Shown: positions 2,005 through 14,799, numbered from the stretch's first letter. The stretch is DNA of 14,799 nucleotides from a virus (IMGVR_UViG_2654587540_000008); one strand, 5' to 3'. Translations and numbers: made by a program. Notes: generated by a model not told the origin, from the letters alone.

Positions 2005-2040
2005 ATTTTCTCCCTGCATCCTGAATACTACAGAGAGAGC

Positions 2041-2077
2041 ATAAAAAAAGCACGGTAAGGGGTCTACCGTGCTTTTA
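2041..2077 (-). terminator. Rho-independent terminator (bidirectional hairpin) ending the minus-strand mor operon
   Basis: Perfect 11-bp inverted repeat AAAGCACGGTA (2047-2057) / TACCGTGCTTT (2065-2075) with a 7-nt loop AGGGGTC. It is flanked by an A7 run at 2043-2049 (a U-run on the minus-strand transcript) and TTTT on the plus strand. Lies 40 bp downstream of the Mor-like stop. Confidence 0.7.
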
Positions 2078-2118
2078 TACAATAAGGAGATTTTTGAAAG
2101 GACTTTAACAAGCAGGAA

Positions 2119-2517
2119 TTATCTGGATTTGTTAACGTCTCTCGTCTCCTCTGGCAGATCTTCATCAAACAACCTGCCCTGCATCCGATCCAGTTCTTCT
2201 TTTCTTACCCGCTTAACCACGCTGTAGACCCACTGAAGCGAAACACCAAATTTGCGGGCCAGTTCGTGGTGGTTGCGTCCGTTAAACTCCCTGAAGATTT
2301 CCCGGTCGCGCTGACTGACCTTCCATACCATGCCCATCGGGAAATAAACGTTTTGCCCGCCCCAGACCTGCATCATTCGGTTCGCGACAGCCTGACCAAT
2401 CTGGTCGGCAATTGCGGGCTCAATATCAATAATCTCGCGAACGGTCTCAGAGGTATGCTGTGCCAGTTCCACCAGGAGTTCCGGCCCTTTACTTCGAAAC
2501 TGATTCAGGTCGCTCAT
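2119..2517 (-). CDS. mor: Mor/C-family transcriptional activator (Mu middle-operon regulator-like)
   Basis: 132-aa ORF. The C-terminal half WGGQNVYFPMG...REIFREFNGRNHHELARKFGVSLQWVYSVVKRVRK matches the Mor/C-family GGQ.VY.P...FNGRN..EL...YGV....VY..I.R.R pattern as I recall it for Mu Mor. AGGAG lies 6 nt upstream of the ATG at 2517. Confidence 0.8.
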   Translation of the reverse strand: MSDLNQFRSKGPELLVELAQHTSETVREIIDIEPAIADQIGQAVANRMMQVWGGQNVYFPMGMVWKVSQRDREIFREFNGRNHHELARKFGVSLQWVYSVVKRVRKEELDRMQGRLFDEDLPEETRDVNKSR

Positions 2518-2938
2518 GTTTTACTCCTGCAGCTCTGCGCTGCCACTTCTTCAGTTTCTCAATAACACTGCTTGCCTGTTCAGTACTGAGCCAGCGCAGA
2601 GCGCTGATGCCCGTTTCCCGCTTGATCCACCGCGCTAATGCATTTTCTGAACGGTCACGAACAATGCCGGCAGCAGCCATTTCAAGCCATAGTGCACGGA
2701 TTTTCCTGGACTGCGGATGGTTATCCAGCGGTAAACCGGAGCTGGCTTTTCCGGCAGGCTTAACGCGAAAGCCTTTCCTTTTCATGGACTCAAGCACGCA
2801 GTTTAGTTGTGTGATATCCATTACTTTGGTTGAGGCCTTACCAGTCAGCCCCTGTAACACCTGGCGGTAGGTGTCTTCATCTAGGCCCAGTTCATTACGG
2901 GCAATATGGATAAGCTGAATCAGTCGTTTTTTCTGCAT
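2489..2938 (-). CDS. GemA-like protein (Mu gp16 / DUF1018-like), immediately upstream of mor
   Basis: 149-aa ORF starting MQKKRLIQLIHIARNELGLDEDTYRQVLQGLTGKAS, resembling the N-terminal motif of Mu GemA-family proteins. Its position directly 5' of the Mor-like gene, with a 29-bp overlap, matches Mu gene order (gemA-mor). Confidence 0.5.
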   Translation of the reverse strand: MQKKRLIQLIHIARNELGLDEDTYRQVLQGLTGKASTKVMDITQLNCVLESMKRKGFRVKPAGKASSGLPLDNHPQSRKIRALWLEMAAAGIVRDRSENALARWIKRETGISALRWLSTEQASSVIEKLKKWQRRAAGVKHERPESVSK

Positions 2939-2939
2939 A

Positions 2940-3143
2940 TCAGCCCCGCTTTTTCAGTCTGCCAGCAGCAATGTCAGTTGCAGCCGGCAGGGTCACAGGC
3001 CAGAACAGTATGACAGCTGTCATATACAGGATGTAATACGCGGTGTCATAGTGGTTACCGAAGCCCAGTGCATAATGAAGCCGGGCACTGCATAATCCTG
3101 CATATGTGTACCAGAAAAGAAAACAGGCAATAGTTTCAGCCAT
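2940..3143 (-). CDS. Small hydrophobic protein, hypothetical
   Basis: The track ORF is 2940..3164; the ATG at 3143 (MAETIACFLFWYTYAG...) gives an 8-bp overlap with the upstream gene. Two hydrophobic segments. Tightly packed within the minus-strand operon. Confidence 0.35.
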   Translation of the reverse strand: MAETIACFLFWYTYAGLCSARLHYALGFGNHYDTAYYILYMTAVILFWPVTLPAATDIAAGRLKKRG

Positions 3144-3543
3144 TATATTTTTTCTCCAGTTCAATATTTTTCAGGTCATTTTCCGCAAACAGGATTGCTG
3201 TTCTGGCACTCCGCAATCGTGCTTTCGCATTTTTTTCTTCACGTTCAAGGCCAGCGACAGATTCACGAAGAGCTTCTCGCTTTTTATGAAGACGATTAAT
3301 TTCATGCACGATATTTTCAGCATTACGGGCACGGTCAAGGATAAATTCAAATGGATCCAGTACAGCCCCACACAGTGAACAGGTCAGCGTCCGGTTGATT
3401 TCAGAGACTGTTGTCCGGGCATGCCGGCACAGGTTTTGTTCGTTATTCTTTCGTTCAGAAATAACCACGTTCAGCAGTTTTTTGGCTTCTGCATCAGGAG
3501 CTGGCTGAAGCAAATGAATAATGTTATCGCTGTCGTTATCCAT
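3136..3543 (-). CDS. Hypothetical protein with a Cys-containing segment and a coiled-coil-like C-terminus
   Basis: The track ORF is 3136..3642; the likely start is the ATG at 3543 (MDNDSDNIIHLL...), with GGAGG 6 nt upstream and an 8-bp overlap with the end of the upstream gene. Contains C..H....C.LCG spacing and a K/E/R-rich C-terminal helix. Confidence 0.5.
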   Translation of the reverse strand: MDNDSDNIIHLLQPAPDAEAKKLLNVVISERKNNEQNLCRHARTTVSEINRTLTCSLCGAVLDPFEFILDRARNAENIVHEINRLHKKREALRESVAGLEREEKNAKARLRSARTAILFAENDLKNIELEKKYNG

Positions 3544-4225
3544 TATATGCCTCCAGTTTCTGTTGTTCCTGCCCACTGACCGGTCGGTGCAGTCTGACGT
3601 TCTGCCCTTCTCGAAACCCCGCATAGCGCGAGGCGTCGCCATTGCGGCTTCTTCCCGGTTTACGCGCTCTGGTGGTTTGCGTTTGCGGGTATTTATGTTC
3701 CAGCCACTGCTGCATCAGTTCACGTTCGTCATCGGTCAGGGCGAAGGACTGTATTTCACTGATAACGGCCAGCACCCAGCCTTCAGCAAACTGGTCACCA
3801 CGGCTGGTACGGGTGGCAGTTTTTATTCTTTTGTTCTGTGTGCTGATATACTGCTGACGCGCCTTTTTCAGCTGGCGGGCCAGCACTTCCCAGGTGTATG
3901 CAGCCAGTGCAGCCCGTTCCCGGTTGCCGTAGAACCCCACACCCGGATATGTGCCGGGGTGAATGATGGAGTTAACACCAAATGCCTCGCGGATGATGTT
4001 CATCAGGCCCAGCATGTAGCGCGGTGGACGGAGACTGCCTGTCGGCCAGTAATGACTGATGGTTTCATCAATATCACTCATGGCAATGTCGGAATGTGTG
4101 ATGCCGTGAACATCCATCAGTTTACGGGCACGGCGCAGTGCCAGAGCGGCTTCGTGTGGGTTGCCGGATGCGGCCAGCGCCAGCAACTTTTTCAGTTTCT
4201 CAATGTGTTTATTCTGGTCTGTCAT
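3536..4225 (-). CDS. DUF2786-like protein (N-terminal KLKKLLALAASGNPHEAALALRRARKLM motif)
   Basis: 229-aa ORF. The N-terminal motif matches the DUF2786 family signature as I recall it. GGAG lies 8 nt upstream of the ATG at 4225, and the start overlaps the upstream stop in an ATGA arrangement. Confidence 0.6.
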   Translation of the reverse strand: MTDQNKHIEKLKKLLALAASGNPHEAALALRRARKLMDVHGITHSDIAMSDIDETISHYWPTGSLRPPRYMLGLMNIIREAFGVNSIIHPGTYPGVGFYGNRERAALAAYTWEVLARQLKKARQQYISTQNKRIKTATRTSRGDQFAEGWVLAVISEIQSFALTDDERELMQQWLEHKYPQTQTTRARKPGRSRNGDASRYAGFREGQNVRLHRPVSGQEQQKLEAYNG

Positions 4226-4437
4226 TGTTCAGTATCTCCGGTATTTTTCTGCCGTTTCCATGCCCGGACAGCGTCGGACAGCTCTTTCAGGCTGTATGCT
4301 GCTTTAAGCTTTTCCCATAACCACTGTGTTGTTATGTGCATCAGCAGGGCAGCCAGGGCTGCCCCCGCACTGAGGCATGTCGCCAGGCCAGTAAGAATCA
4401 GTGTCCATGCGGTGATTTCCCTGAGTATGTCAGCCAT
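4222..4437 (-). CDS. Small membrane protein, hypothetical
   Basis: 71 aa with one strongly hydrophobic segment (WTLILTGLATCLSAGAALAALLM). GGGAGG lies 6 nt upstream of the ATG at 4437. The stop overlaps the downstream start (ATGA), suggesting translational coupling. Confidence 0.5.
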   Translation of the reverse strand: MADILREITAWTLILTGLATCLSAGAALAALLMHITTQWLWEKLKAAYSLKELSDAVRAWKRQKNTGDTEQ

Positions 4438-4451
4438 TGAATGCCTCCCGG

Positions 4452-4748
4452 TTACTCGTTCGTGTAAATCACGCCCAGTCGTGCAGCCAGACGTTCCAGT
4501 TTTTTCTGTTTGTGGAAGTCAATCAGCCGGTCCATCCCCTGAAGGCGCAGCTGCTCTGTCATGATTTCCACGTCTGCCAGCTCTGCCGCGAGGTCACTTT
4601 CGCTGCCCTGTCCGTTCAGGTTGCGGGCGGCACTGGCCGCCAGTTCGGCGGCCTCTTCTGTCAGTTTCAGGGCCTGTGCATCCGGCCCGAAACGCTGCAG
4701 AGCCAGACGATAGAGGGCAGTGCGTGTGAGTATGGTGTTCCGTGTCAT
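4452..4748 (-). CDS. MazG-like nucleotide pyrophosphohydrolase domain protein (phage-type, ~100 aa)
   Basis: 98 aa. Pattern FGP...EEAAEL....ELADVEIM..QL...G.D.....K.KK..R resembles small phage MazG-like proteins. GAGGG lies 5 nt upstream of the ATG at 4748. First gene of the minus-strand operon. Confidence 0.5.
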   Translation of the reverse strand: MTRNTILTRTALYRLALQRFGPDAQALKLTEEAAELAASAARNLNGQGSESDLAAELADVEIMTEQLRLQGMDRLIDFHKQKKLERLAARLGVIYTNE

Positions 4749-4845
4749 GCCGCGCCCTCAGTGCTTCCGGTCGACGGTGATGTGCAGGCCGCCTTCTGCA
4801 GTGGTTTCCATCCGGTATCTGGCCAACATCTTCCGCGTCGGTGGC

Positions 4846-4910
4846 GTTGATCAACTGACTGACTATCGGATCAATATCGGGGGCTGACGGTGAGTGTTGA
4901 ACTGACTGAC
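4846..4910. promoter_or_regulatory. Direct repeats in the divergent intergenic region; candidate operator/promoter elements
   Basis: GTTGATCAACTGACTGAC (4846-4863) and GTTGAACTGACTGAC (4896-4910) share GTTGA..AACTGACTGAC. The first contains the 10-bp palindrome GTTGATCAAC. They lie between the start of the minus-strand operon (4748) and the plus-strand genes. Confidence 0.25.
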
Positions 4911-5171
4911 AAAGGAGGGCGATGTGCGTCACTGGGCATGTCAAATGGTACGTGGTTTACCCTCCTTGATATTCCGGGGGTGGAAACCCTTTTTAATACC
5001 CGTAAAACCAATGACCCGATTGACTGCACACGTTCAAAGGCCCGCAAACTGGCCGATTTGATTGAAGCATGGGAGCCGCCCGACCACTGGTTCTCCGGCA
5101 CCGGCAAATCTGAGGGAAAGGCGCTTCTCATCGCTTTCCTGCGTAACTGCAAGGGTTTTCGCACTTGCTGA
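4890..5171 (+). CDS. Hypothetical small protein; start uncertain (GTG at 4890 or ATG at 4938)
   Basis: Open frame ending TGA at 5169-5171, followed by a GC hairpin (5179-5192) and a T-rich tract. AAGGAGGG at 4912-4919 is poorly spaced for either start. No recognisable domain. Confidence 0.3.
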   Translation: MSVELTDKGGRCASLGMSNGTWFTLLDIPGVETLFNTRKTNDPIDCTRSKARKLADLIEAWEPPDHWFSGTGKSEGKALLIAFLRNCKGFRTC

Positions 5172-5177
5172 CATCAC

Positions 5178-5200
5178 AGGGGCTCCGGCCCCTTCTTCTT
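5178..5200 (+). terminator. Possible weak rho-independent terminator
   Basis: GGGGC (5179-5183), loop TCCG, GCCCC (5188-5192), followed by TTCTTCTT. The stem is short and the U-run is interrupted. Confidence 0.3.
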
Positions 5201-5268
5201 AATCCCCTTTAATATCCGTCACGTCCACTGCCAGACATACTGCTCTGAATTTACAAAGGAGTATGATC

Positions 5269-5604
5269 ATGTCACAGACCCAGTCCGATACTTTTACGCT
5301 GTCTTATCCTTTCACCACTGCTGCAGGTACCAGAATTGAACAGATTGAACTGAAACGCCTGACAGTAAAAGACCTGAAGCAGGTGCGCAAAATCAACAAA
5401 GACCCGGCAGACTGGGACGAACCACTGATTGCCCGTAGCACCGGTATCCTCCCGGAAGACCTCGATAACATGGATCTTGCCGACTATATGGAGCTGCAGA
5501 AACGATTTCAGAAAATCACTGGGCTGGGCAAGAGCGACAAAAACACTGATGCAGGCGCAGGGGCTGCTGGCGAGATGGTTCAGGTTTCAGCCGGGGGAGA
5601 TTGA
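5269..5604 (+). CDS. Tail assembly chaperone (P2 gpE / lambda gpG-like), upstream ORF of a frameshift pair
   Basis: The track ORF starts at 5263; the ATG at 5269 has AAGGAG 7 nt upstream. The protein (..RIEQIELKRLTVKDLKQV...DLADYMELQKRFQKITG..) resembles the gpE family of tail chaperones. It lies immediately upstream of the tape measure gene, as is conserved in long-tailed phages. Confidence 0.75.
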   Translation: MSQTQSDTFTLSYPFTTAAGTRIEQIELKRLTVKDLKQVRKINKDPADWDEPLIARSTGILPEDLDNMDLADYMELQKRFQKITGLGKSDKNTDAGAGAAGEMVQVSAGGD

Positions 5605-5686
5605 TGCCCTCGATACTGACGATCTGGAGATGTGGCTGGAGCAGGCTGAAGAGCAAATCAAAAGCGAGTTCGGCGACAATCAGTAA
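5429..5686 (+). CDS. Overlapping ORF in the +1 frame; putative frameshift extension of the tail chaperone (E'/GT-like)
   Basis: Open in the frame one nucleotide forward of the chaperone frame, overlapping its 3' end and extending 82 nt past its stop to TAA at 5684-5686. A G5 run (5593-5597) lies 5 nt before the chaperone stop. The geometry implies a +1 or -2 shift rather than the canonical -1. Confidence 0.5.
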   Translation: MPVAPVSSRKTSITWILPTIWSCRNDFRKSLGWARATKTLMQAQGLLARWFRFQPGEIDALDTDDLEMWLEQAEEQIKSEFGDNQ

Positions 5687-5778
5687 CAACGTATCACTTA
5701 ACAGCCGCCAGTCGCGGCTGTTCTGCATGGGGTTCAGACACTTCCCTTCCGTTTTTTTGCTTTCAGAGGATAGCCACC

Positions 5779-8244
5779 GTGGCCAGTGAATTTTCAGTCG
5801 GCGTCATTATTGGCGGCATTGTCGGGAGCAGCTTCCGCTCAGCCGTCAGTGGCACCCGACGCGCCCTTGATTCCCTTGGTGATACCTCCCGCCGTCTGCA
5901 GGAACGCCAGAATGCCTTAACCCGGGCAACAGAACGTTATGGTCAGTTGGGTTCTTCCCGGATGCAGCATCTCAACAGCGAGTTGCTGCGGGTAAGCCGC
6001 ACCATGGAGCAAATTGAACGTCAGCAGCGCCGTCTGTCAGCAGTATCAGCCATCGGTGATGCGTTGAAGGCTAACCGCCTGGCGCTCTATGGTCAGGGTG
6101 CAGAAACCTATGCTATTGGCAGAACGCTGGGCGCACCGGTCATGGCCTCGGTTAAACAATATGCCTCGTTTGAATCACAGTTACGGGATATCAGTGTCAC
6201 AGGAGACCTGGATGCAAAACAGGAACGTGCAATTGGCCTGGCTATCAGACAGGCCTCGCTGAAGGTTAACCAACTGCAGGAGTCTCTGTTAGGGGGAGTC
6301 GGACAATTAGTCGCTGATGGTATGGCCCCCGAACGGGCAGCAACGTTTGCAGAGATGCTTGGAAAGACCGCTACAGCAACCAAAGCCGATATGACCGACC
6401 TTGCCAAAATGACTTATGCCTTCAGCGATGCACTCAGAATCACTGATGCGAAAGAACTTGAACAGGCATTTGGTATTGCGGCAACAGGAGCCAAACTTGG
6501 GTCATTTGAGCTGAAGGATATGGCAAAAGCATTACCCGGTATGGCTAAAGCCTTCGCTGCTCGTGGTATTTATGGAAAAGATGCGATTACCCAGATTGTT
6601 GCCAGTCTGGAGGTCGGTAAAGGTAGTGGCTCTGCAGAGGAAGCGGTCACCAATATGTCCAACTGGCTGGCAGCAATGGGCCGCGGAGATACCATCCAGA
6701 AATATGCTAAAGCCGGGGTGGATTACCAGGGGTCAATGCAGAATTACGTCGCTCAGGGTTTTTCGCAGTACGAAGCTTCACTGATGATTGCCAACCGTTT
6801 TATCGACAGTAAAGGCAAAGCGTTCTTGCAGCAATGGAAAGCTGCAGGAGCAAGAGGCGATCAGGAAGGTCAGCAGAAACTCATGGAGTCATTTGGTCTG
6901 GCTGAGGTCTTTACCGATATTCAGACTGTCAACCATTTACTGTCAATGCGACAGGGCTGGGATAAATACCTTTCCAGTAAGCAGGAAATGAATGCTCCGG
7001 CTGCAATGTCTACCCTGGATAAGGATGCTGCAAAGCAGAATGATACGCTTGAAGGTCGCTGGCGCAGAATGCAGATCGGCTTTAATGATTCTGCTATCAG
7101 CATCGGGCAATCCTTGCGTCCGGCTTTGCTCCAGTTGGGTGAAACATTTATTCCTTTAATGGACAGTGTTGGCAAATGGATAGCGGCAAATCCGCAGCTC
7201 GTCAGCAGCACCATAAAGGTTGTGGGCGCATTACTCGCTTTCAGGATGGCCACTATCGGTCTCAAGCTTGGGCTGAACCTCCTTCTTTCCCCCTTTGTAA
7301 GCGTCTGGAAAAATGCTGTTTTACTTCGGGCCAACTGGCTTCGTCTGACGCTCGCACTGGGGGAAGGCGGTAAACTCCGCTGGCTGGTGACAGGCTTTGG
7401 TGCTGTCGCCAGAGGAGCCAGAACACTGGGTGGTGTGCTCTCAGGGGGGCTGGTTCGCGGAATTATGAGCGCCGGGCGTGCCGTTCTCTGGCTTGGCCGG
7501 GCGCTGATGATGAATCCCATCGGTCTCGCTATCACCGCCGTCGCGGCAGCAGCTTACCTTATCTACCGCAACTGGGGCGCGGTCAGTAGCTGGTTTAAAC
7601 AGCGCTGGGCTGACATTCAGGAAGCCTTTAACGGCGGCATCGCGGGAATTGGTAAACTGCTGGTTAACTGGTCTCCGGCAGGTCTGCTTTATAAAGCCTT
7701 TGCGGCTGCGCTGAAATATCTCGGCGTTGATTTGCCGGCGAAATTCACCGACTTCGGTGGTCATCTTATTGACGGGCTGATAAATGGCATCAGAAACAAA
7801 TGGGAGTCACTGAAAACCAGCATAACCGGAATGGGTGACAGCATCAGTGACTGGTTCAGCGAAAAGCTGGGCATCCATTCACCGAGTCGCGTGTTTATAG
7901 GCTTTGGTGACAATATCGCGCAGGGTGCCGCCATTGGCCTGCAACGGACCACTCCGCTTGCTGCACTGGCCGGGCAGCGTCTGGCCGCTGAAATGACACC
8001 GGATGTTCCCCGTATCCCGTCGCCGGAAATCATGGCTGCCGGATATTCAGGCCGTGGCGCAACTGCAACCGGCGGTGGAGCGTCTGGCGGTATCCAGGTC
8101 AGCTTTAATCCTCAGTTTTTCCTCAATGGTAAGGAAACCGCAGCGCCTGCCGGGCTGGCTGGTGCCCTGAATATGAGCCTGCATGAGCTGGAAAAAATGC
8201 TGGAGCGTCTGCTGGCTCAGAAACAACGTAAGGAGTACAGCTGA
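5779..8244 (+). CDS. Tail tape measure protein
   Basis: 821-aa ORF from a GTG start at 5779 (GAGGA 9 nt upstream). N-terminal helical, Q/R/E-rich region, a central glycine-rich hydrophobic stretch (...GFGAVARGARTLGGVLSGGLVRGIMSAG...) and position directly after the chaperone pair are typical of tape measure proteins. Confidence 0.85.
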   Translation: MASEFSVGVIIGGIVGSSFRSAVSGTRRALDSLGDTSRRLQERQNALTRATERYGQLGSSRMQHLNSELLRVSRTMEQIERQQRRLSAVSAIGDALKANRLALYGQGAETYAIGRTLGAPVMASVKQYASFESQLRDISVTGDLDAKQERAIGLAIRQASLKVNQLQESLLGGVGQLVADGMAPERAATFAEMLGKTATATKADMTDLAKMTYAFSDALRITDAKELEQAFGIAATGAKLGSFELKDMAKALPGMAKAFAARGIYGKDAITQIVASLEVGKGSGSAEEAVTNMSNWLAAMGRGDTIQKYAKAGVDYQGSMQNYVAQGFSQYEASLMIANRFIDSKGKAFLQQWKAAGARGDQEGQQKLMESFGLAEVFTDIQTVNHLLSMRQGWDKYLSSKQEMNAPAAMSTLDKDAAKQNDTLEGRWRRMQIGFNDSAISIGQSLRPALLQLGETFIPLMDSVGKWIAANPQLVSSTIKVVGALLAFRMATIGLKLGLNLLLSPFVSVWKNAVLLRANWLRLTLALGEGGKLRWLVTGFGAVARGARTLGGVLSGGLVRGIMSAGRAVLWLGRALMMNPIGLAITAVAAAAYLIYRNWGAVSSWFKQRWADIQEAFNGGIAGIGKLLVNWSPAGLLYKAFAAALKYLGVDLPAKFTDFGGHLIDGLINGIRNKWESLKTSITGMGDSISDWFSEKLGIHSPSRVFIGFGDNIAQGAAIGLQRTTPLAALAGQRLAAEMTPDVPRIPSPEIMAAGYSGRGATATGGGASGGIQVSFNPQFFLNGKETAAPAGLAGALNMSLHELEKMLERLLAQKQRKEYS

Positions 8245-9128
8245 TGTTTGCCGTACTGGGTGATATTGAGTTTGAGCTGATTACCTACTGGGACGGCTTC
8301 GAGGCCACGTTTGGCGTCGATTATGCGGAGCATGCCCGCATCGAGGGTAAACCCGGCCTGCAGTTCGTCGGCGACAGGCTGGACGAAATCCAGATAAGCC
8401 TGGTCTTCCATCAGCATTATTGTGTGCCCGACGTGGAGCTGGCGAGAGTGCGAACAGCCATGAAGGCCCATCAGGCACTGGCGCTGGTCTTCGGCAACGG
8501 TGACTATCGCGGCTGGTTCGTGATTACCGATGTGACCGCAACCAGCGAGCAGACAGACAGCACCGGTAACGTGCTGGCTGTCAGTGCCACCGTGTCTCTC
8601 CGGGAATACACCGGTGACCCGAAAAATCCTCTGCAACCGCCGGCAATACGCAGGCAGGTTCCCGGTGCCGGGGCCGTATCTGGTGCTGTTCCATCGCCTT
8701 CCGGGGTGGCGCAGTTCGTCCGTAACGGCGTCAACTATGCGAAACAGGCGCAGTCTGTACTCCAGACCACTATCAGTGCCGTTCGGGTGGCGCAGAAAAT
8801 GAAGGGTAACCCCGTTGTCGCGCTGACCCGTGTGCCGGGACTGATGAGCGGACTGGGTAATATATCCGGAGCTCTGGGGAAAAGTGTTCCGGCGTTTAAT
8901 GCACTCTCTGAATCCATGCCCGATGCCATCAGTCTGGCCAGAACAGCCAGTGAGGCAGCCACGTATGTACAGCAGGCGCAGTCGGCGCTGAGTGGTGTGG
9001 ACAAAAGAAATATTGCAGGTGCTCTGGATACCGTTTCCGGGCAGCTTAACGCCGCCGGCACAGCATTCAACCGCATGTCTCCGGGATTAAGTGCAATGGC
9101 CGCCAGAATACTGACGAGGAGTGTGTGA
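8244..9128 (+). CDS. Tail protein with gpU / DNA-circulation-N-like N-terminal domain and a low-complexity Ala/Ser/Gly-rich C-terminal extension
   Basis: The ATG overlaps the tape measure stop (TGATG) with AAGGAG 8 nt upstream. The first ~125 aa (MFAVLGDIEFEL...GKPGLQFVGDRLDEIQISLVFH...GNGDYRGWFVITDVTATSEQTDSTGNVLAVSATVSLREY) align by eye with the P2 gpU-type fold. The remaining ~170 aa are low-complexity and unassigned. Confidence 0.65.
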   Translation: MFAVLGDIEFELITYWDGFEATFGVDYAEHARIEGKPGLQFVGDRLDEIQISLVFHQHYCVPDVELARVRTAMKAHQALALVFGNGDYRGWFVITDVTATSEQTDSTGNVLAVSATVSLREYTGDPKNPLQPPAIRRQVPGAGAVSGAVPSPSGVAQFVRNGVNYAKQAQSVLQTTISAVRVAQKMKGNPVVALTRVPGLMSGLGNISGALGKSVPAFNALSESMPDAISLARTASEAATYVQQAQSALSGVDKRNIAGALDTVSGQLNAAGTAFNRMSPGLSAMAARILTRSV

Positions 9129-9205
9129 TGTTTCTTGAACATATTACCCGTGACGGAGAGCGCTGGGATTCTCTGTGGATGAGGCACTGGCCATTGATGT
9201 GCTGA
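9128..9205 (+). pseudogene. Short out-of-frame leader ORF (MFLEHITRDGERWDSLWMRHWPLMC), possible remnant N-terminus of a deleted or frameshifted tail gene
   Basis: ATG at 9128, 25 codons, in a different frame from the J-like ORF that opens at 9175. The J-like protein lacks the N-terminal part expected for baseplate J proteins. The GDxWDSL motif is reminiscent of LysM-like tail protein X N-termini (weak). Confidence 0.3.
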
Positions 9206-9987
9206 TCCCGGCAGGCACCCGCGTCAGCGCTTCCGACAGTATTATTTTTGCCACCGATACAGATGTGGTGCTGAAGGCCGGATTGCTGCTGGTCAATGTC
9301 ACGTCCACCTGTACCGAGCCGGGTACCGCTGGCAACGGCTGGCAACCGGCGCAGGTCAGTCAGTTACTCGATGAGATTGATAACATTGACCTGCTGGTGA
9401 CCAATCTGACGGCCAGCTCTGGCGGTTCAGAGCAGGAAGACGATGACCGGCTCCGGGAGCGTATCAGGCTGGCCCCGGAGTCATTCACCAATGCCGGAAG
9501 CCGTGGTGCATACCGTTTTCATGCTATGGGGGCGCATCCCGGCATTGTCGACGTTGCTGTTCTTTCTCCCGCTCCCGGCACTGTCGAGCTGTATCCGCTG
9601 CTCAGCACTGGTCTGCCGGACAGCAGTATCCTCACTCTGGTAGAGAGTTTCTGTTCTGACGAAAAAGTCAGACCACTCACTGATACCGTGCGGGCTAAAA
9701 CACCTGTTCAGGTGGATTACACCATTGAAGCCAGGATTACGATCTATCGTGATCAGGATGCAAGGTTGGTAAAGGACAACGCTAACAGCGCCATACAGAA
9801 CTGGGTGGCATCCCGTACCGCCACGCTGGGGCGCGATATTGTTCCCAGCCAGATTATCAGCGTGTTGTCCGTTTCCGGGGTGTACCAGGTCGAACTGGTG
9901 ACACCGGCACTGAGGGTGGTGGCAGAAAACGAATGGGCAAACTGTACGGCGATCACTCTTAACATGACCGGGGTGTCCGATGGCTGA
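9175..9987 (+). CDS. Baseplate assembly protein J-like (P2 gpJ / Mu gp47 family), apparently N-terminally truncated
   Basis: 270 aa from the first in-frame start (GTG at 9175). The C-terminal two thirds (..GSRGAYRFHAMGAHPGIVDVAVLSPAPGTVELY...TLGRDIVPSQIISVLSVSGVYQVELVTP...) match the gpJ family as I recall it. An 8-bp overlap (ATGGCTGA) with the I-like gene is typical of J-I pairs. Confidence 0.7.
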   Translation: MDEALAIDVLIPAGTRVSASDSIIFATDTDVVLKAGLLLVNVTSTCTEPGTAGNGWQPAQVSQLLDEIDNIDLLVTNLTASSGGSEQEDDDRLRERIRLAPESFTNAGSRGAYRFHAMGAHPGIVDVAVLSPAPGTVELYPLLSTGLPDSSILTLVESFCSDEKVRPLTDTVRAKTPVQVDYTIEARITIYRDQDARLVKDNANSAIQNWVASRTATLGRDIVPSQIISVLSVSGVYQVELVTPALRVVAENEWANCTAITLNMTGVSDG

Positions 9988-10558
9988 GGTGCTACAACTC
10001 CCGCCACCGCTTGAGGGTGATATCAGTCTCAGAACGCTGGGAAGACTGGCCGGACGGCTGGATAACATCGACCTGAGCGTACTGATGGTCGGTCTCGTCG
10101 ATATTGTCGACAGTTCCGCGCTGCCATGGCTTGGCGAGCAGTTCTCGCTGTTCGGCGATGGCTGGGAACTGGCGGAATCGGACGATGTACGCCGCATGCT
10201 TATCAAATCCGCTATCGAGCTACACCGCTATAAAGGAACACCGTGGTCAATCCGGGAAATTATCCGCCGTTTTGGCTTCGGCGAAGTGGATCTGATTGAA
10301 GGTACGGGGCAGATTGGCTATGACGGCAGACACACGTACAACGGGCTTTTCGTCCATGGCGATGCACAAGCCTGGGCAGTCTATCGGGTCATCCTTCAAC
10401 AGCCCATCACTAATGATCAGGCAGCGCTGTTACGTCAGACGCTTGCTGCCTTTGCTCCGGCTCGCTGTCATCTGGCAAGTCTGGAATATCAGTCTGTCGC
10501 CATTCGATACAACAGTACTACCCGTTATGACGGTAGTTACAACCACGGGAGCAGTTAA
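9980..10558 (+). CDS. Tail protein I-like (P2 gpI / Mu gp48 family)
   Basis: 192 aa containing IELHRYKGTPWSIREIIRRFGFGEVDLIEG, a hallmark-like motif of the gpI family. Positioned between the J-like gene and the tail fibre gene. Confidence 0.75.
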   Translation: MAEVLQLPPPLEGDISLRTLGRLAGRLDNIDLSVLMVGLVDIVDSSALPWLGEQFSLFGDGWELAESDDVRRMLIKSAIELHRYKGTPWSIREIIRRFGFGEVDLIEGTGQIGYDGRHTYNGLFVHGDAQAWAVYRVILQQPITNDQAALLRQTLAAFAPARCHLASLEYQSVAIRYNSTTRYDGSYNHGSS

Positions 10559-10560
10559 TT

Positions 10561-11643
10561 ATGGCAAATCTACCCGAAACCCCGCAGTGGGAAAGCGGCA
10601 TCTACCAGATTGAGGTCTCTGACCCCGTTCTGGGCGGACCTGACGGAATTTCTAACCGCCAGGCTAAACAACTGGCCAGCCGAACGTCATACCTCAAACA
10701 GAAGGTCGAAAAAAGCGAAACAGACCTGGCTGCACATATCGCGGCAGTTGACCCGCATACCCAGTACGCGACGAAAGCCAGTCCGACATTCACCGGCACA
10801 CCAACAGCACCTACACCTGCAAATGGTGATAACAGCAAAAAGCTGGCGACGACGGAGTTTGTGGCCAAAGCACTTGCGGCACTTGCAGGCAGCGCCCCTG
10901 AGACACTGGATACGCTTAAAGAGCTGGCTGACGCTCTCGGTAATGATCCAAACTTTGCGACTACGGTACTGAACAAGCTGGCGGAAAAGCTGGCTAAAGA
11001 CCAGAACGGCGCAGATATTCCTGAGCCTGCGCTGTTTGTCAAAAACCTTGGTTTGGGGGAAGGCTCTGCACTGCCCGTTGGTGTGCCTGTTCCGTGGCCA
11101 TCAGCAACACCGCCAGAGGGATGGCTGAAATGTAACGGCGCAGCATTTTCTTCTGAAATGTACCCCAAACTGGCAAAGGCTTATCCCACGAATAAATTAC
11201 CGGATTTACGGGGTGAATTTATCCGTGGCTGGGATGACGGACGTGGCGTGGATGCGGGGCGAACATTACTGGGTGCTCAGGATTTTGCGTTTGAAGATCA
11301 TGCTCTGGGGCTACCTACCAATCAGGGATATGCAGGTATTGAGAAAGGTAGCACTGAAAATGATATTTATGCCGCTTTCTCTGATGGCATGCACTATACA
11401 GGGAATGCAACCAGTAGCGGTCAATGGGATGATTATTCTCAGTCAAAAATCTATATCCGTAGTGATGGTAAACCTGTCGGAAATAACATTGAGTTAGCTA
11501 ATTCAAATGAGGCCTTGCGTTCTTCTTTACGTACTTATAGAGCCAGTACAGGATGGTATAACCCAGGATTAAACAAACCTAAAACAGCTACAGAAACACG
11601 TCCACGCAACGTTGCTTTTAATTACATCGTAAGAGCCGCATGA
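10561..11643 (+). CDS. Tail fibre protein: constant N-terminal part (10561 to about 11047) fused to currently expressed variable C-terminal cassette A
   Basis: 360 aa. The N-terminus has phage tail-fibre repeat-like sequence (VDPHTQYATKASPTFTGTPTAPTPANGDNSKKLATTEFV). The C-terminal part begins with a tail-collar-like module (WLKCNGAAFSSEMYPKLAKAYPTNKLPDLRGEFIRGWDDGRG) and ends ETRPRNVAFNYIVRAA. The crossover site lies inside the gene at 11036-11061. Confidence 0.85.
   Translation: MANLPETPQWESGIYQIEVSDPVLGGPDGISNRQAKQLASRTSYLKQKVEKSETDLAAHIAAVDPHTQYATKASPTFTGTPTAPTPANGDNSKKLATTEFVAKALAALAGSAPETLDTLKELADALGNDPNFATTVLNKLAEKLAKDQNGADIPEPALFVKNLGLGEGSALPVGVPVPWPSATPPEGWLKCNGAAFSSEMYPKLAKAYPTNKLPDLRGEFIRGWDDGRGVDAGRTLLGAQDFAFEDHALGLPTNQGYAGIEKGSTENDIYAAFSDGMHYTGNATSSGQWDDYSQSKIYIRSDGKPVGNNIELANSNEALRSSLRTYRASTGWYNPGLNKPKTATETRPRNVAFNYIVRAA
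11036..11061 (+). other. Serine-invertase crossover site (hix/gix/cix-like), expression-site copy
   Basis: TTGTCAAAAACC-TT-GGTTTGGGGGAA has the 12-2-12 architecture and AAACC nn GGTTT core of hixL (TTCTTGAAAACC AA GGTTTTTGATAA) and gix sites, as recalled. It sits exactly at the constant/variable junction of the tail fibre gene. Confidence 0.7.
11048..11253 (+). repeat. Conserved 5' cassette module, copy A (tail-collar-like domain coding, ~200 bp)
   Basis: Encodes GLGEGSALPVGVPVPWPSATPPEGWLKCNGAAFSSEMYPKLAKAYPTNKLPDLRGEFIRGWDDGRG. Near-identical DNA recurs at 11649, 12193 and, inverted, at about 13990-14194, with a partial inverted copy at about 13592-13700. Confidence 0.85.
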
Positions 11644-11662
11644 AAACGTTGGTTTGGGGGAA
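11637..11662 (+). other. Crossover-site-like sequence at the cassette A/B junction, with a degenerate left half-site
   Basis: CGCATGAAAACG-TT-GGTTTGGGGGAA. The right half and centre are identical to the expression-site copy; the left half retains only the AAAAC core (5 of 12 matches). Confidence 0.4.
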
Positions 11663-11854
11663 GGCTCTGCACTGCCCGTTGGTGTGCCTGTTCCGTGGCC
11701 ATCAGCCACACCGCCAGAGGGCTGGCTGAAATGCAACGGCGCAGCATTTTCTTCTGAAATGTACCCCAAACTGGCAAAGGCTTACCCCACCAATAAATTA
11801 CCGGATTTACGCGGTGAGTTTATTCGTGGCTGGGATGACGGGCGCGGAGTAGAT
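11649..11854 (+). repeat. Conserved 5' cassette module, copy B
   Basis: Near-identical to 11048-11253 with scattered, mostly synonymous substitutions; the encoded peptide is identical through GWDDGRG. Confidence 0.85.
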
Positions 11855-12187
11855 ACAGGACGTGTTTTATTAAGTAATCAAACAGATGCTTTTCAAACAC
11901 ACAGACATAAGACCTATTTTTATGCAGGTATCAACCGTAATGAAATGCCTTTAAAAAATTTACCTGAATCAGAAGAAATGCTGACATTAAGCTCTACAGT
12001 TAATGCCTTGTCTCCAGCCGATATTGATGCCACAAATTCATTAATTGGGAATGACGATTACAACTGTGTTATTGAAGGCAATAAAAACAGTAAACGTACA
12101 GCGACAGAGTTGAATACCAGCTCTACAGGCACAACAGAAACCCGCCCCCGCAATATTGCTTTTAACTTCATTGTAAGAGCAGCATAG
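11651..12187 (+). CDS. Silent alternative tail-fibre C-terminal cassette B (no independent start codon or RBS)
   Basis: Open frame beginning right after the stop of cassette A. It encodes the same 65-aa tail-collar module, then a divergent ~95-aa region, and ends with the conserved ETRPRNIAFNFIVRAA and TAG. The track start is an internal TTG with no Shine-Dalgarno sequence. Confidence 0.7.
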   Translation, partial: GLGEGSALPVGVPVPWPSATPPEGWLKCNGAAFSSEMYPKLAKAYPTNKLPDLRGEFIRGWDDGRGVDTGRVLLSNQTDAFQTHRHKTYFYAGINRNEMPLKNLPESEEMLTLSSTVNALSPADIDATNSLIGNDDYNCVIEGNKNSKRTATELNTSSTGTTETRPRNIAFNFIVRAA

Positions 12188-12206
12188 AAACGTTGGTTTG
12201 GGGGAA
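12181..12206 (+). other. Crossover-site-like sequence at the cassette B/C junction, with a degenerate left half-site
   Basis: AGCATAGAAACG-TT-GGTTTGGGGGAA; same right half and centre as the expression-site copy. Confidence 0.4.
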
Positions 12207-12398
12207 GGCTCGGCGCTGCCTGTTGGCGTGCCGGTTCCATGGCCGTCAGCCACACCGCCAGAGGGCTGGCTGAAATGTAACGGCGCAGCATTTTCTTCTG
12301 AAATGTACCCCAAACTGGCAAAGGCTTACCCCACCAATAAATTACCGGATTTACGGGGTGAGTTTATTCGTGGCTGGGATGACGGGCGCGGAATTGAC
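12193..12398 (+). repeat. Conserved 5' cassette module, copy C
   Basis: Near-identical to copies A and B; the encoded peptide is identical through GWDDGRG. Confidence 0.85.
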
Positions 12399-12665
12399 TC
12401 TGGTCGCAACCTGTTATCTGCACAGAATGATGCAATTCAGAATATTGTTGGTTCTTTTGGGCGTACCCAGCTTTTTAAAGACGTTCTTAGTTCAGGACCA
12501 TTTAGTAGAATTAATCAAGTTTTATCTATTGGTCTAAAGGAAACGGAATTTATTGAGGGTTATGGAGCTTATAACTGGACATTCGACGCTTCTCGAGCGG
12601 TTCGTACAGCATCTGAAACCCGCCCCCGAAATATTACATTTAACTATATCGTGAGGGCGGCTTAA
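12195..12665 (+). CDS. Silent alternative tail-fibre C-terminal cassette C
   Basis: Same conserved 5' module, a divergent middle (..NLLSAQNDAIQNIVGSFGRTQLFKDVLSSGPFSRINQVLSIGLKETEFIEGYGAYNWTFDASRAVRTAS..) and the conserved end ETRPRNITFNYIVRAA, stop TAA at 12663-12665. No start codon context. Confidence 0.7.
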   Translation, partial: GLGEGSALPVGVPVPWPSATPPEGWLKCNGAAFSSEMYPKLAKAYPTNKLPDLRGEFIRGWDDGRGIDSGRNLLSAQNDAIQNIVGSFGRTQLFKDVLSSGPFSRINQVLSIGLKETEFIEGYGAYNWTFDASRAVRTASETRPRNITFNYIVRAA

Positions 12666-12671
12666 TTATGA

Positions 12672-13289
12672 TCAACTGACAGTTGCCAGAGGCATTTCCG
12701 GCCAGTTGATATCCGGCGCAGTGCTGAGGTCAGTCGCATTAAGCGCATCTATAAAATCAAGCACGGCGTTCAGTTTTTCCGTCTCCTGTGGCGTCAACTG
12801 GCGTCCGGCTCGTAGTTTGAGATTTATAAGCTCAACGGATGCCATTGCCTGCTCCTCAAGTTGCTGACGATGCGCTCCGGCAGCTTCCAGTTCTGCAGTG
12901 TGCTGTCGTTCCGTATCTGTCACCCAGTTCTCACCATCCCAGATATCATAGATGGTAGCTGGCTGTTTTACCGTCGTATCAGAAGGGTAATCTCCCGGCT
13001 GTGTGATTTGCACAGCGTTACCATTCTCTGTGCTGTAAACCGTCTCGCCTCTGTGGTCTGGGACATATTTCCAGATGTTCTGGTCGGTATCACGACAGAC
13101 AGCGAAGCCAGGGCGCTCTTCCGGTGGCGCGTCAATGCATGAATGAGCCGGAATTCCAACACCATAAGCGAGATATTCAACAGTGGCAGAGAGATATTCA
13201 CGGTTTTCAGCATCGTAGTTATAAACTGTAATATCGCCTGCAGTTGTAGCGATACCATTCTGATCAAGTACTGCAACAGCGTTATTCAT
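12672..13289 (-). CDS. Tail fibre assembly protein (Tfa; Mu U / P2 gpG / lambda Tfa family)
   Basis: 205 aa. The C-terminus ..LNAVLDFIDALNATDLSTAPDINWPEMP has the typical Tfa ending. The start codon overlaps the stop of cassette D as TAATG (translational coupling). It converges on cassette C with 6 bp between stops. Confidence 0.8.
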   Translation of the reverse strand: MNNAVAVLDQNGIATTAGDITVYNYDAENREYLSATVEYLAYGVGIPAHSCIDAPPEERPGFAVCRDTDQNIWKYVPDHRGETVYSTENGNAVQITQPGDYPSDTTVKQPATIYDIWDGENWVTDTERQHTAELEAAGAHRQQLEEQAMASVELINLKLRAGRQLTPQETEKLNAVLDFIDALNATDLSTAPDINWPEMPLATVS

Positions 13290-13700
13290 TAAATAGCCCT
13301 TACAATATAGTTAAACGCAATATTACGGGGGCGGGTTTCTGTTCCTGTATTCCCTCCGTTGACACCTAACCTGTACACACCACGAGTGCCAATAGCACGT
13401 AGTGAAGATGGAACCTTTACGCCTGACTCATCTGTTTTAACTATCCCTCCATCCCCGTATGTAGCCAGTATACCAGGATTTGTACCTGCACGTGTGCTGT
13501 TTGCAGCAAGCCCTTCACCGGTCCATAACTCCATATAGTGAGTATGATCCATAACCGAATGTGGTTGTGCATTAAGCAAGAAACGCCCTGAATCAATTCC
13601 CCGTCCGTCATCCCAGCCACGAATAAACTCACCCCGTAAATCCGGTAATTTATTGGTGGGGTAAGCCTTTGCCAGTTTGGGGTACATTTCAGAAGAAAAT
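13289..13700 (-). CDS. Alternative tail-fibre C-terminal cassette D (inverted orientation, 5' end truncated by an N run), followed by tfa
   Basis: Minus-strand frame encoding ..SSEMYPKLAKAYPTNKLPDLRGEFIRGWDDGRGIDSGRFLLNAQPHSVMDHTHYMELWTGEGL...TGTETRPRNIAFNYIVRAI. The first ~100 bp of the conserved module are missing where the N run 13701-13710 sits. Confidence 0.7.
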
Positions 13701-13710
13701 NNNNNNNNNN
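13701..13710. other. Run of 10 N at the cassette E/D junction; assembly gap or masked sequence
   Basis: By comparison with the A/B and B/C junctions, about 97 bp of conserved sequence (crossover site plus start of the tail-collar module) is expected here, so the 10 N do not represent true length. Confidence 0.9.
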
Positions 13711-13715
13711 CGTTT

Positions 13716-14194
13716 CTATGCTGCTCTTACAATGAAGTTAAAAGCAATATTGCGTGGACGAGTTATATTAAAAAATGACCCACTTAAAGCAACTTTGGAA
13801 CGGCTATTGGCGTTACCCAGAGATGCGTACCATAAATAATCGCTCCGATAATCAGTTGAGAATGTTTTATCACCGCCATAATCAATGCTATTACCGTTAC
13901 TCATATATGAAATATCAACTGAAGCATCATTGTCATCTCTACCACCAACTAAAGTACCTTTCTGCCACCCAAGCAACTGGCGGCCAGGATCAATTCCCCG
14001 TCCATCATCCCAGCCACGAATAAACTCACCCCGTAAATCCGGTAATTTATTCGTGGGATAAGCCTTTGCCAGTTTGGGGTACATTTCAGAAGAAAATGCT
14101 GCGCCGTTACATTTCAGCCAGCCCGCTGGCGGTGTGGCTGACGGCCACGGAACAGGCACACCAACGGGCAGTGCAGAGCCTTCCCCCAAACCAA
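13716..14194 (-). CDS. Alternative tail-fibre C-terminal cassette E (inverted orientation)
   Basis: Minus-strand frame encoding the full conserved module (one substitution, PPAGW instead of PPEGW), a divergent middle (..QLLGWQKGTLVGGRDDNDASVDISYMSNGNSIDYGGDKTFSTDYRSDYLWYASLGNANSRSKVALSGSFFN) and ITRPRNIAFNFIVRAA. The track's upstream extension to 14228 runs through the N run and is not trusted. Confidence 0.7.
13990..14194 (-). repeat. Conserved 5' cassette module, copy E (inverted)
   Basis: Reverse complement is near-identical to 11048-11253. Confidence 0.85.
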
Positions 14195-14204
14195 NNNNNN
14201 NNNN
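14195..14204. other. Run of 10 N exactly where the crossover half-site of cassette E is expected
   Basis: On the minus strand the sequence reads ...CTTTGTTTTG-N10-TTGGTTTGGGGGAA. The N run replaces the left half-site and lies 22 bp upstream of the invertase start. Confidence 0.9.
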
Positions 14205-14226
14205 CAAAACAAAGAGGATATTTTTC

Positions 14227-14799
14227 ATGCAAATTGGCTACATTCGTGTGTCAACAAATGACCAGAATACAGATTTACAACGAAACGCACTGAACTGCGC
14301 AGGATGTGAACTGATTTTTGAAGATAAAATCAGCGGAACAAAGTCAGCCAGACCAGGATTGAAAAAGCTACTCAGAACTTTATCAGAAGGAGATACGCTC
14401 GTTGTCTGGAAGCTGGACAGGCTGGGCAGAAGCATGAAGCACCTTATCACTCTTATTGAGGAACTGCGGGGAAAAGGGGTTAACTTCCGTAGCCTTACAG
14501 ACAGCATTGATACGTCAACACCCATGGGACGTTTCTTTTTTCACATCATGGGGGCTTTGGCGGAAATGGAGCGTGAATTAATAGTTGAACGAACACTGGC
14601 CGGACTTGAAGCAGCACGTGCACAGGGGCGTATTGGCGGACGCCGTCCGAAACTGACAAAAGAGCAACATGAACAAATAGCAAGGCTGATCAAAAATGGC
14701 TATAGCAGGAAACAACTGGCAATTATTTACGATATCGGCATATCGACGATTTATCGTTATCACCCGGTAGAAAAGCTACAAACTCAAACTGAGTTGTAA
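14227..14799 (+). CDS. Gin/Pin/Cin/Hin-family serine DNA invertase
   Basis: 190 aa. MQIGYIRVSTNDQNTDLQRNAL...DTLVVWKLDRLGRSMKHL...FRSLTDSIDTSTPMGRFFFHIMGALAEMERELIVERT...GRIGGRRPKL is near-identical in motif content to Gin/Pin/Hin as recalled. The catalytic Ser is at position 9 and there is a C-terminal helix-turn-helix. The track ORF from 14074 is an upstream artefact; stop TAA at 14797-14799. Confidence 0.92.
   Translation: MQIGYIRVSTNDQNTDLQRNALNCAGCELIFEDKISGTKSARPGLKKLLRTLSEGDTLVVWKLDRLGRSMKHLITLIEELRGKGVNFRSLTDSIDTSTPMGRFFFHIMGALAEMERELIVERTLAGLEAARAQGRIGGRRPKLTKEQHEQIARLIKNGYSRKQLAIIYDIGISTIYRYHPVEKLQTQTEL

Follow-up and report, generated by a model that had tools for sequence, protein, structure and literature searches.

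The window analysed here, a stretch of 14,799 nucleotides from a virus (IMGVR_UViG_2654587540_000008), holds a tail-fibre gene followed by alternative fibre C-termini and a DNA invertase gene (Table 1). The constant part of the fibre has 98.5% identity to its counterpart in closed E. coli prophages; its residues 137-167 correspond to the last stretch of the constant region in Mu tail-fibre protein S (PDB 8JU3/5YVQ). Matches to Baseplate_J, Tail_P2_I and Caudo_TAP, located upstream of or within the array, identify a P2-type tail-fibre module (gpH/gpG), and the fibre region is collinear with intact prophages. The sequence-only reading had described a five-cassette, invertase-driven switch of the fibre C-terminus, with A, B and C forward, D and E reversed and A expressed; every main element of that description was recovered where it had been placed, and all five cassettes are likewise found in a gap-free assembly of the same prophage (GCA_017046735.1, locus L018). 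As cassette A is the one fused to the constant part, it is the expressed tip, and the same cassette type is found silent, in other positions or orientations, in M114 (L010) and strain 12089 (L011).

Table 1. Features of the fibre switch locus, in coordinates of the whole window
Feature	Coordinates	Strand	Description
Tail-fibre constant 5' part, aa 1-162	10561..11047	+	Directly after the gpI homologue; ORF 10561-11643
Site s1	11036..11061	+	TTGTCAAAAACC/TT/GGTTTGGGGGAA; core TT within codon L163
Cassette A	11050..11643	+	Type T07, 197 aa; joined to the constant part at present
Site s2	11637..11662	+	CGCATGAAAACG/TT/GGTTTGGGGGAA
Cassette B	11651..12187	+	Type T20, 178 aa, HxH motif THRH; silent, direct orientation
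Site s3	12181..12206	+	AGCATAGAAACG/TT/GGTTTGGGGGAA; partner of s5 in the inversion that separates window and L018
Cassette C	12195..12665	+	Type T11, 156 aa; silent
Tail-fibre assembly (chaperone) gene, tfa	12672..13289	-	205 aa; Pfam Caudo_TAP, E=5e-26
Cassette D	13289..13700	-	Type T02, HxH motif DHTH; 168 aa when complete
Scaffold gap 1 and left half of s4	13701..13722	-	Gap 13701-13710; left half AGCATAGAAACG at 13711-13722
Cassette E	13716..14192	-	Type T21, 158 aa; ends ITRPRNIAFNFIVRAA; 484-bp piece placed by scaffolding
Site s5	14181..14204	-	Right half and core TT at 14181-14194; left half AAGACGAAAACG inside gap 2
Serine DNA invertase (Gin/Pin/Cin/Min family)	14227..14799	+	190 aa; Pfam Resolvase and HTH_7; Ser9 present

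The cassettes share a module of ~214 nt, present in three direct and two inverted copies, with the forward copies 93% complementary to that of E and 81-90% to the visible part of D. Pfam Collar matches in cassettes A, B, C and E (E about 1e-15) bear out its earlier description as tail-collar-like. The variable middles differ from one another in all five cassettes and measure 74-115 aa rather than the 90-130 aa first estimated, and the ETRPRN ending ascribed to every cassette does not apply to cassette E (Table 1). Each cassette starts in the same frame at a crossover site (GLGEG...), and a left half-site comes after its stop codon; the right half-site GGTTTGGGGGAA, which encodes GLGE, opens each of the five promoterless cassettes and is followed by the conserved tail-collar module. 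Cassette B, which lacks its own start codon, shows a weak match to the T4 gp12 receptor-binding domain PF14928. Annotation of B and C as separate genes was rejected, their TTG starts being artefacts of the ORF caller. Cassette C forms one end of a double-headed central segment (C> <tfa <D) that includes the only chaperone gene of the array, the ATG of which overlaps cassette D's stop codon (TAATG). The first 97 nt of cassette D (32 codons) fall in a scaffold gap and were obtained from the complete copy in L018. The same assembly bears out the position of cassette E, and E-type cassettes also adjoin the invertase gene in MS20655.

All five junctions carry one type of 26-bp site, xxxxxxAAAC[C/G] TT GGTTTGGGGGAA, with three sites in forward and two in reverse orientation and with the TT core and right half identical in all five, two of them recovered from L018. 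The hix/gix-like site that had been proposed to end the constant region is s1, which also occurs in L001, L003, L006 and L018 and is nearly the same as the e14 and Mu-prophage repeats in Table S1 of Goldberg et al. (2014, PMC4272514). The five sites fit the published consensus for the crossover sites of Mu, P1, e14 and p15B, and they also match those seen to recombine in EC958 Phi2. The two runs of N are scaffold gaps that remove most of s4 and the left half of s5 from the window itself: gap 1 is 97 nt in reality and includes the core and right half of s4, and gap 2 (14195-14204) is 44 nt. With these gaps filled from L018, the D and E junctions carry recognisable sites as well.

The gene adjoining the cassettes encodes a small serine recombinase with an N-terminal catalytic domain and a C-terminal helix-turn-helix (Resolvase, 2.7e-51; HTH_7, 1.4e-13), and its catalytic serine is intact, as had been noted earlier, with Ser9 (of the family's Ser9/10) lying in the conserved RVSTNDQ motif. 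Residues 1-185 align end to end with Gin (PDB 4M6F, E=3.7e-90), and the protein shares 70% identity with Mu Gin, 94.2% with the invertase of E2348/69 and 95.8% with that of one P1-like plasmid. NCBIfam searches assigned none of invertase, fibre and chaperone to a specific family. The switch may use Fis and an enhancer, which in this invertase family is expected in the 5' part of the invertase gene; a loose scan for the Fis consensus over the first 260 nt of invertase genes returned weak, non-conserved matches and no conserved pair of sites. A diversity-generating retroelement, another possible source of variation in a fibre tip, was considered and rejected, with no reverse transcriptase in Pfam scans of the fibre and cassette region and the flanking ORFs.

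The switch locus is also present in L018, which carries the same degraded prophage with 0 mismatches over window positions 4600-11040, as well as all five cassettes and all five sites. After a single in-silico inversion between s3 and s5, all three pieces of the window are exact substrings of L018 in the correct order, which also bears out the scaffold order. The window and L018 thus differ by exactly one s3-s5 inversion, and the locus therefore exists in at least two arrangement states. Since identity is 100% over 6.4 kb of flank and over every cassette, the inversion is younger than any point mutation. A third arrangement, in the order A, D-tfa, C', E', is found in an intact prophage with an identical fibre protein (L019). 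Similarly, a four-cassette sibling prophage at yehR occurs in strains 8178, 3-72, FEA3 and DEF2 as four different members of a set of 12 in-silico isomers, each matched with 0 mismatches in 4,400 bp, and the copy in DEF2 expresses a different tip. In these comparisons of assemblies the inversions between inverted sites are precise and conservative: each left half-site remains attached to the segment before it and each module remains with its own cassette, and the crossover is placed within 30 bp of identical sequence surrounding the site and no finer. Breadth-first enumeration gives 48 isomers for five sites, 4 for three and 240 for six, the last equal to the number for the six-site p15B. The 4 isomers for three sites agree with Goldberg et al. 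(2014, PMC4272514).

Taken together, the demonstrated anatomy of the array, the family of its invertase, the identity of the sites and the inversion isomers found at this same locus and at its siblings make it very probable that the locus is a multiple DNA-inversion switch of the Min type, which exchanges the receptor-binding tip on the tail fibre of a P2-type prophage in E. coli. The Gin-family invertase would pair any forward with any reverse site, cut at the shared TT core and invert the DNA in between; exchange between direct repeats, leading to deletion, is disfavoured in this invertase family. Successive overlapping inversions would run the cassettes through 48 arrangements in which any of the five could come in frame behind the constant part to give five fibre tips, with D and E one inversion and B and C two inversions away from expression. 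The central segment C> <tfa <D is a Mu-G-like unit, and its lone chaperone gene is translationally coupled to cassette D only. Inversion is probably still ongoing in the source strain, and the different tips are predicted to bind different receptors.

The array could in principle be a fossil, with cassettes that are relics of past duplications, no inversion at present and assembly differences that represent old, fixed polymorphisms. The degraded state of the prophage and the single arrangement shared by three isolates of strain 8178 point in this direction, the latter indicating that flipping is not necessarily fast everywhere. However, the invertase retains its full length and catalytic serine, none of the five sites is damaged and their core is the same, L018 is identical in flank and cassettes yet one clean inversion apart, the four yehR-prophage strains are likewise isomers with 0 mismatches, and homologous loci flip inside single-colony cultures, so that a fossil array is improbable. 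Also to be weighed is RecA-mediated homologous recombination between the inverted collar modules, with an incidental invertase. These modules are long and 88-95% identical, and with crossovers mapped at 30-bp resolution a RecA exchange within the block is formally possible. In every natural isomer, however, the exchange lies in the block that holds the 26-bp site and nowhere else in the 214 bp, and the homologous e14 and Mu switches flip with repeats of only ~20 bp. Minority arrangements of 10-50% in single-colony cultures of homologues further suggest that flipping is commoner than expected from RecA, which we would expect to exchange such short, diverged repeats at a far lower rate. These points leave a RecA origin of the isomers very improbable.

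An assembly artefact, in which pieces of other prophages were mis-scaffolded or repeats were collapsed or duplicated, is the least credible explanation. There are two scaffold gaps in the window, cassette E is a scaffolded piece of 484 bp, and some E. coli genomes carry several such loci with up to 13 module copies per genome. Against this, the five variable middles are all distinct, finished genomes contain arrays of 4, 5, 6 and 9 cassettes, and the presence of all five cassettes in the gap-free contig of the same prophage already refutes an artefact. The assembly duplications that the sequence-only reading had named as a risk are thereby set aside, and the cassette repeats are genuine.

As the earlier reading held, the prophage is degraded: gpX-D-V-W and the N-terminus of gpJ are missing, and sheath and head genes are absent from the window. 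The prophage is tail-defective and unable to make a tail by itself, and the present-day biological role of the switch is therefore doubtful. Given the loss of the baseplate hub genes and the absence of sheath and head genes from the window, the switch in the window is most likely a still-functional relic that is not in use. The suggestion that it might be a domesticated, phase-variable surface-binding module is unsupported and was rejected, since the tail-killing deletion is recent, as indicated by flanks 99-100% identical to intact prophages and by the same fibre protein in L019, and the intact cassettes therefore tell nothing about selection.

A more speculative proposal, which we regard as possible but rather unlikely, has two parts: that the tips fall into two folding classes, with tips other than the D type able to fold without Tfa, and that the intact invertase of this tail-dead prophage acts in trans to switch sibling arrays. 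Only D-type tips (T02/T06/T17, with an HxH metal-binding motif) are coupled to the single Tfa chaperone, and for the remaining tips the chaperone gene is in every case antisense or distant when they are expressed, which suggests that they may fold without it. The proposed targets in trans would be arrays on other prophages or on P1-like plasmids within the same cell. If two folding classes do exist, the array would provide a natural test set for the chaperone independence of tail-collar tips.

The locus is an additional case of a well-known and widespread switch type, and as such a textbook example and not a discovery. Such cassettes occur in arrays of 2 to 9 on finished E. coli chromosomes and on P1-like plasmids, and loci built in this way with 3-9 cassettes are common. 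For phage biology the consequence is small, the locus being one more well-described device for bet-hedging on host range. Its practical implications concern annotation, where silent cassettes are routinely mislabelled as separate "phage tail protein" genes or as pseudogenes; short-read assemblies, which at such loci break exactly at the crossover sites, as in the window; and strain typing, where differences in arrangement among near-identical strains represent site-specific flips and not evolutionary distance. For phage and tailocin engineering, these arrays offer a ready-made set of over 20 collar-type tips that can replace one another at a common in-frame junction.

A search of the phage collection returned no close relative of the whole locus, the best match being a P1-like phage with frameshifted cassettes. 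The Min multiple-inversion system of plasmid p15B, reportedly the work of Sandmeier, Iida and Arber in 1990-1992, has six crossover sites and 240 isomers. In common with p15B Min and the arrays of P1-like phage-plasmids, the window encodes a Gin/Cin/Pin-family serine invertase and has more than two clustered sites with overlapping invertible segments, and one constant 5' fibre part joined in frame to many alternative 3' ends. P1-like plasmids also carry the same Collar cassettes and sites, with up to 9 cassettes, and one such plasmid, pJIE250-3 (not the plasmid compared with the window), encodes an invertase 98.5% identical to Min according to one paper. Unlike p15B and P1, the window locus is chromosomal, has a P2-type constant part of 162 aa instead of the P1 S type, and has five sites instead of six. 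The Mu G/Gin, P1 C/Cin and e14 P/Pin switches resemble it in invertase family, in 26-bp sites with a 2-bp core, in the position of a site at the end of the fibre constant part and in the directly adjacent invertase gene. These are two-state systems with a chaperone gene for each alternative (S-U and S'-U' in Mu), whereas the window has five alternatives of tail-collar (T4 gp12/gp37-like) type and one chaperone gene coupled to one cassette. The R64 shufflon, which acts on the pilV conjugative pilus adhesin by means of a tyrosine recombinase, Rci, and sfx sites of 19 bp, similarly combines one constant 5' part with several invertible 3' cassettes and overlapping inversions. As the window encodes a serine recombinase, and the targeted gene is that of a phage tail fibre lying behind gpJ and gpI homologues, the earlier placement in a Min/p15B-type or shufflon class stands for Min-type multiple inversion and not for a strict shufflon of the R64 kind.

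Experimental parallels come from two other prophages. EC958 Phi2 likewise has invertible 3' ends with Collar domains and a site ...AAACG TT GGTTTGGGGGAA, which lies inside a ~200-bp imperfect inverted repeat, and both orientations are present in PacBio reads (Forde et al. 2014, PMC4134206), although it has only two cassettes. The P2-like prophage of EPEC E2348/69 (L007) is homologous and shares the gene order of the window, namely gpI, fibre, cassette, reversed tfa, reversed cassette and invertase, with sites at 1891695, 1892127 and 1893703 of NC_011601.1. All four predicted variants of this locus, described as a "shufflon", co-exist in single-colony cultures, as validated by PCR (Goldberg et al. 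2014, PMC4272514). Its right half-site and TT core are those of the window, whereas its left half-site is TTCTTGATTACC, its constant part differs and is the longer of the two, and its three sites, 4 isomers and 3 tips compare with five sites, 48 isomers and 5 tips in the window.

What was noticed from sequence alone is confirmed, and the reading of this region as an invertible, multi-cassette switch of the tail-fibre C-terminus is supported by isomers found both at the same locus and at sibling loci. The window is E. coli DNA, with 4816-9175 showing 99.5% identity to prophage tail modules in many complete E. coli genomes, and the constant part of the fibre comprises residues 1-162. The 26-bp crossover site was found exactly as reported from sequence. 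A conserved collar module of ~214 nt recurs in three direct and two inverted copies (81-93% identity), and the variable middles of the five cassettes, at 74-115 aa rather than the 90-130 aa estimated earlier, bear no relation to one another. This repeat structure is far beyond chance.

Features of the window, with position and orientation
Feature	Position	Orientation	Match or role
Mor, Mu-type	2119-2517	minus	
GemA, Mu-type	2489-2938	minus	
DUF2786/DUF7168	3536-4225	minus	
Truncated gpJ	from 9175 onward		Baseplate_J
gpI	between gpJ and tail fibre		Tail_P2_I
Tail fibre, 360 aa	10561-11643		Phage Tail Collar domain
Crossover site TTGTCAAAAACC TT GGTTTGGGGGAA	11036-11061		
Cassette A	directly downstream of the 11036-11061 site	forward	expressed 3' end of fibre
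Cassette B	11651-12187	as A	
Cassette C	12195-12665	as A	
Chaperone gene	12672-13289	minus	Caudo_TAP
Cassette D	13289-13700	minus	
Cassette E	13716-14192	minus	
Recombinase, 190 aa	14227-14799		Resolvase/HTH_7

The recombinase is 70% identical to Mu Gin, with an end-to-end alignment (PDB 4M6F, E=3.7e-90), and carries the catalytic Ser in RVSTNDQ, which bears out its assignment as a Gin-family invertase with an intact active-site serine. Leaving out E2348/69, the closed sibling loci in E. coli have invertases 97-98% identical to it, and it shares 95.8% identity with that of the P1-like plasmid p779-3, 94.2% with that of E2348/69, 79% with that of the P2-like phage pro483 and about 72% with P1-type Cin. 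The 5' coding region of the invertase, where a Fis enhancer would be expected, gave weak, non-conserved matches in a loose consensus scan. Where the array had been placed in either the Min/p15B-type or the shufflon class, the serine invertase makes it Min-type, and the R64-type shufflon falls away.

Both N runs in the window are scaffold joins and the window consists of three contigs: the ten Ns at 14195-14204 correspond to 44 nt in closed relatives, and the sequence flanking the run at 13701-13710 is incompatible with a 10-nt gap. The contigs break exactly where unique left half-sites give way to the core and module that are shared; cassette E forms a 484-bp contig, and what is absent is the 5' end of cassette D, the left half of s5, and s4 except for its left half, visible at 13711-22. 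In short-read assemblies of such loci, breaks fall at recombination sites. An exact-protein look-up of the tail fibre led to two NCBI assemblies, the first of which, L018 (GCA_017046735.1), has this degraded prophage free of Ns, shows 0 mismatches to window 4600-11040 and gives hidden lengths of 97 nt (13701-13710) and 44 nt (14195-14204). Its order is A, B, E and D-tfa (the chaperone gene), all forward, then C in reverse and the invertase. An in-silico inversion of L018, with the third of its forward sites and its only reverse site as end points, yields a sequence in which each of the three window contigs is found letter for letter and in the correct order, and thus the scaffold order is right and the five cassettes, A-C forward and D-E inverted, are genuine. 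The alternative that the cassette repeats are assembly duplications is contradicted by this gap-free, five-cassette locus. The comparison also establishes the presence of all five sites, which share the core TT and the right half GGTTTGGGGGAA; with AGCATAGAAACG before the TT of s4 and AAGACGAAAACG before that of s5, crossover sites are recognisable at both D/E junctions. The window locus is therefore known in two inversion states, one s3 x s5 event apart. The second assembly, L019 (GCA_023828135.1), holds an intact prophage with an identical fibre protein; its array, in the order A, D-tfa, C', E', represents a third arrangement.

Further evidence for the mechanism comes from siblings of the locus. 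Strains 8178, 3-72, FEA3 and DEF2, whose protein accessions are identical, share a version of the prophage that has four cassettes and adjoins yehR. The full set of 12 isomers was derived from the 8178 array by exchanging segments exactly at the TT cores, and the four strains correspond to four different members of the set, each with 0 mismatches across 4,400 bp. In DEF2 another cassette is joined to the constant part, and between 8178 and 3-72 the crossover is restricted to a 30-bp identity block that contains the site. In the three-cassette homologue of EPEC strain E2348/69, sites at NC_011601.1 1891695, 1892134 and 1893696 agree with Table S1 of Goldberg et al. 2014 (PMC4272514), whose paired-end mapping and PCR showed the full set of four predicted variants, with three alternative C-termini between them, side by side in single-colony cultures. 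In the two-cassette homologue, EC958 Phi2, PacBio reads show both orientations, the sites are ...ATTACC TT GGTTTAGGAGAA and ...TAAACG TT GGTTTGGGGGAA, and the invertible part includes the Collar domain (Forde et al. 2014, PMC4134206).

In the proposed mechanism, each site consists of a 'tail', the left half-site belonging to the preceding segment, and a 'head', the right half-site opening a cassette. The array is a chain of constant part, forward single cassettes, a double-headed segment (C> <tfa <D), backward single cassettes and a terminal tail beside the invertase. A breadth-first search permitting inversions only between oppositely oriented sites arrives at 48 arrangements for five sites, with a choice of five fibre tips, D and E being one inversion from expression and B and C two. 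For six sites the same model gives 240 isomers; p15B has 240. For three sites it gives 4, in agreement with the observation of Goldberg et al. 2014 (PMC4272514).

Similarity of the cassettes to the collar-plus-tip regions of T4 gp37 and gp12 (PDB 2XGF, 1OCY), and to those of another short tail fibre (PDB 9CUY), supports a putative receptor-binding role. In the window and the compared loci L001-L019, some cassette types have an HxH motif resembling the metal-binding site of the T4 gp12/gp37 tips; in the window it is THRH in B and DHTH in D, degenerate (DHAL) in A and lacking in C and E, which suggests that two structural classes of tip may be present within one array. The stop of cassette D overlaps the start of the sole chaperone gene (TAATG, 13287-13291), from which the chaperone is predicted to be translationally coupled to one cassette type only and co-expressed only with D as active tip. 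On expression of the other four tips, the chaperone gene would be antisense or further downstream. In related loci it always follows a T02, T06 or T17-type cassette with the HxH motif. One chaperone serves an array of five or more tips.

The prophage was correctly described as degraded. Relative to intact siblings, a 2,510-bp deletion at 9169-9175, its joint showing a 7-bp overlap, has taken gpD, gpV and gpW entirely, together with the greater part of gpX and some 95 residues from the N-terminus of gpJ, so that no baseplate can be built; a further cut in the tail module lies at about 4816, where it begins inside what is the tail tube gene in relatives. The prophage is incapable of making tails. 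Mu-type early and middle genes (1372-4748, minus) stand head to head with the P2-type tail module, no head or sheath genes are present in the window, and the whole has the look of a prophage remnant that is composite or rearranged. A 340-aa ORF at 1-1023 has a signal-peptide-like N-terminus and no Pfam match. Past the invertase, L018 has AbrB-family, Fapy-DNA-glycosylase (nei-like) and LamB_YcsF genes, and the remnant seemingly lies in what would be, on the K-12 map, the ybgO-abrB-nei chromosomal region. The suggestion of a domesticated surface-binding module is unsupported: intact prophages still match the flanks at 99-100% identity, which marks the decay as recent, and an intact switch is thus no evidence for domestication.

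At megablast sensitivity, at least 378 of 5,426 complete E. coli genomes carry the module, as do 232 plasmids, mostly about 95-kb and non-mobilizable, the size class of the inspected P1-like plasmid, with hosts that also include Salmonella, Klebsiella, Shigella and others. Identical cassette types recur across genomes in differing positions and orientations, and the type of cassette A (T07) is silent in M114 and strain 12089. The same array is seen in the P1-like phage vB_EcoM-673R5 (ON470615.2, 5000-8616), with the invertase split into 'Hin1' and 'Hin2' and many frameshifts; faulty sequencing or assembly of an invertible region that is heterogeneous is the probable cause. Cassettes number two in 2014C-3075, four in the 8178 lineage, five in JNEC-KY180 and M114 and six in strain 12089. 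The array is a further example of a known, common kind of switch rather than a new type, its five cassettes comparing with two in EC958 Phi2, where the Collar domain likewise lies in the invertible part, three in E2348/69 and nine in p779-3.
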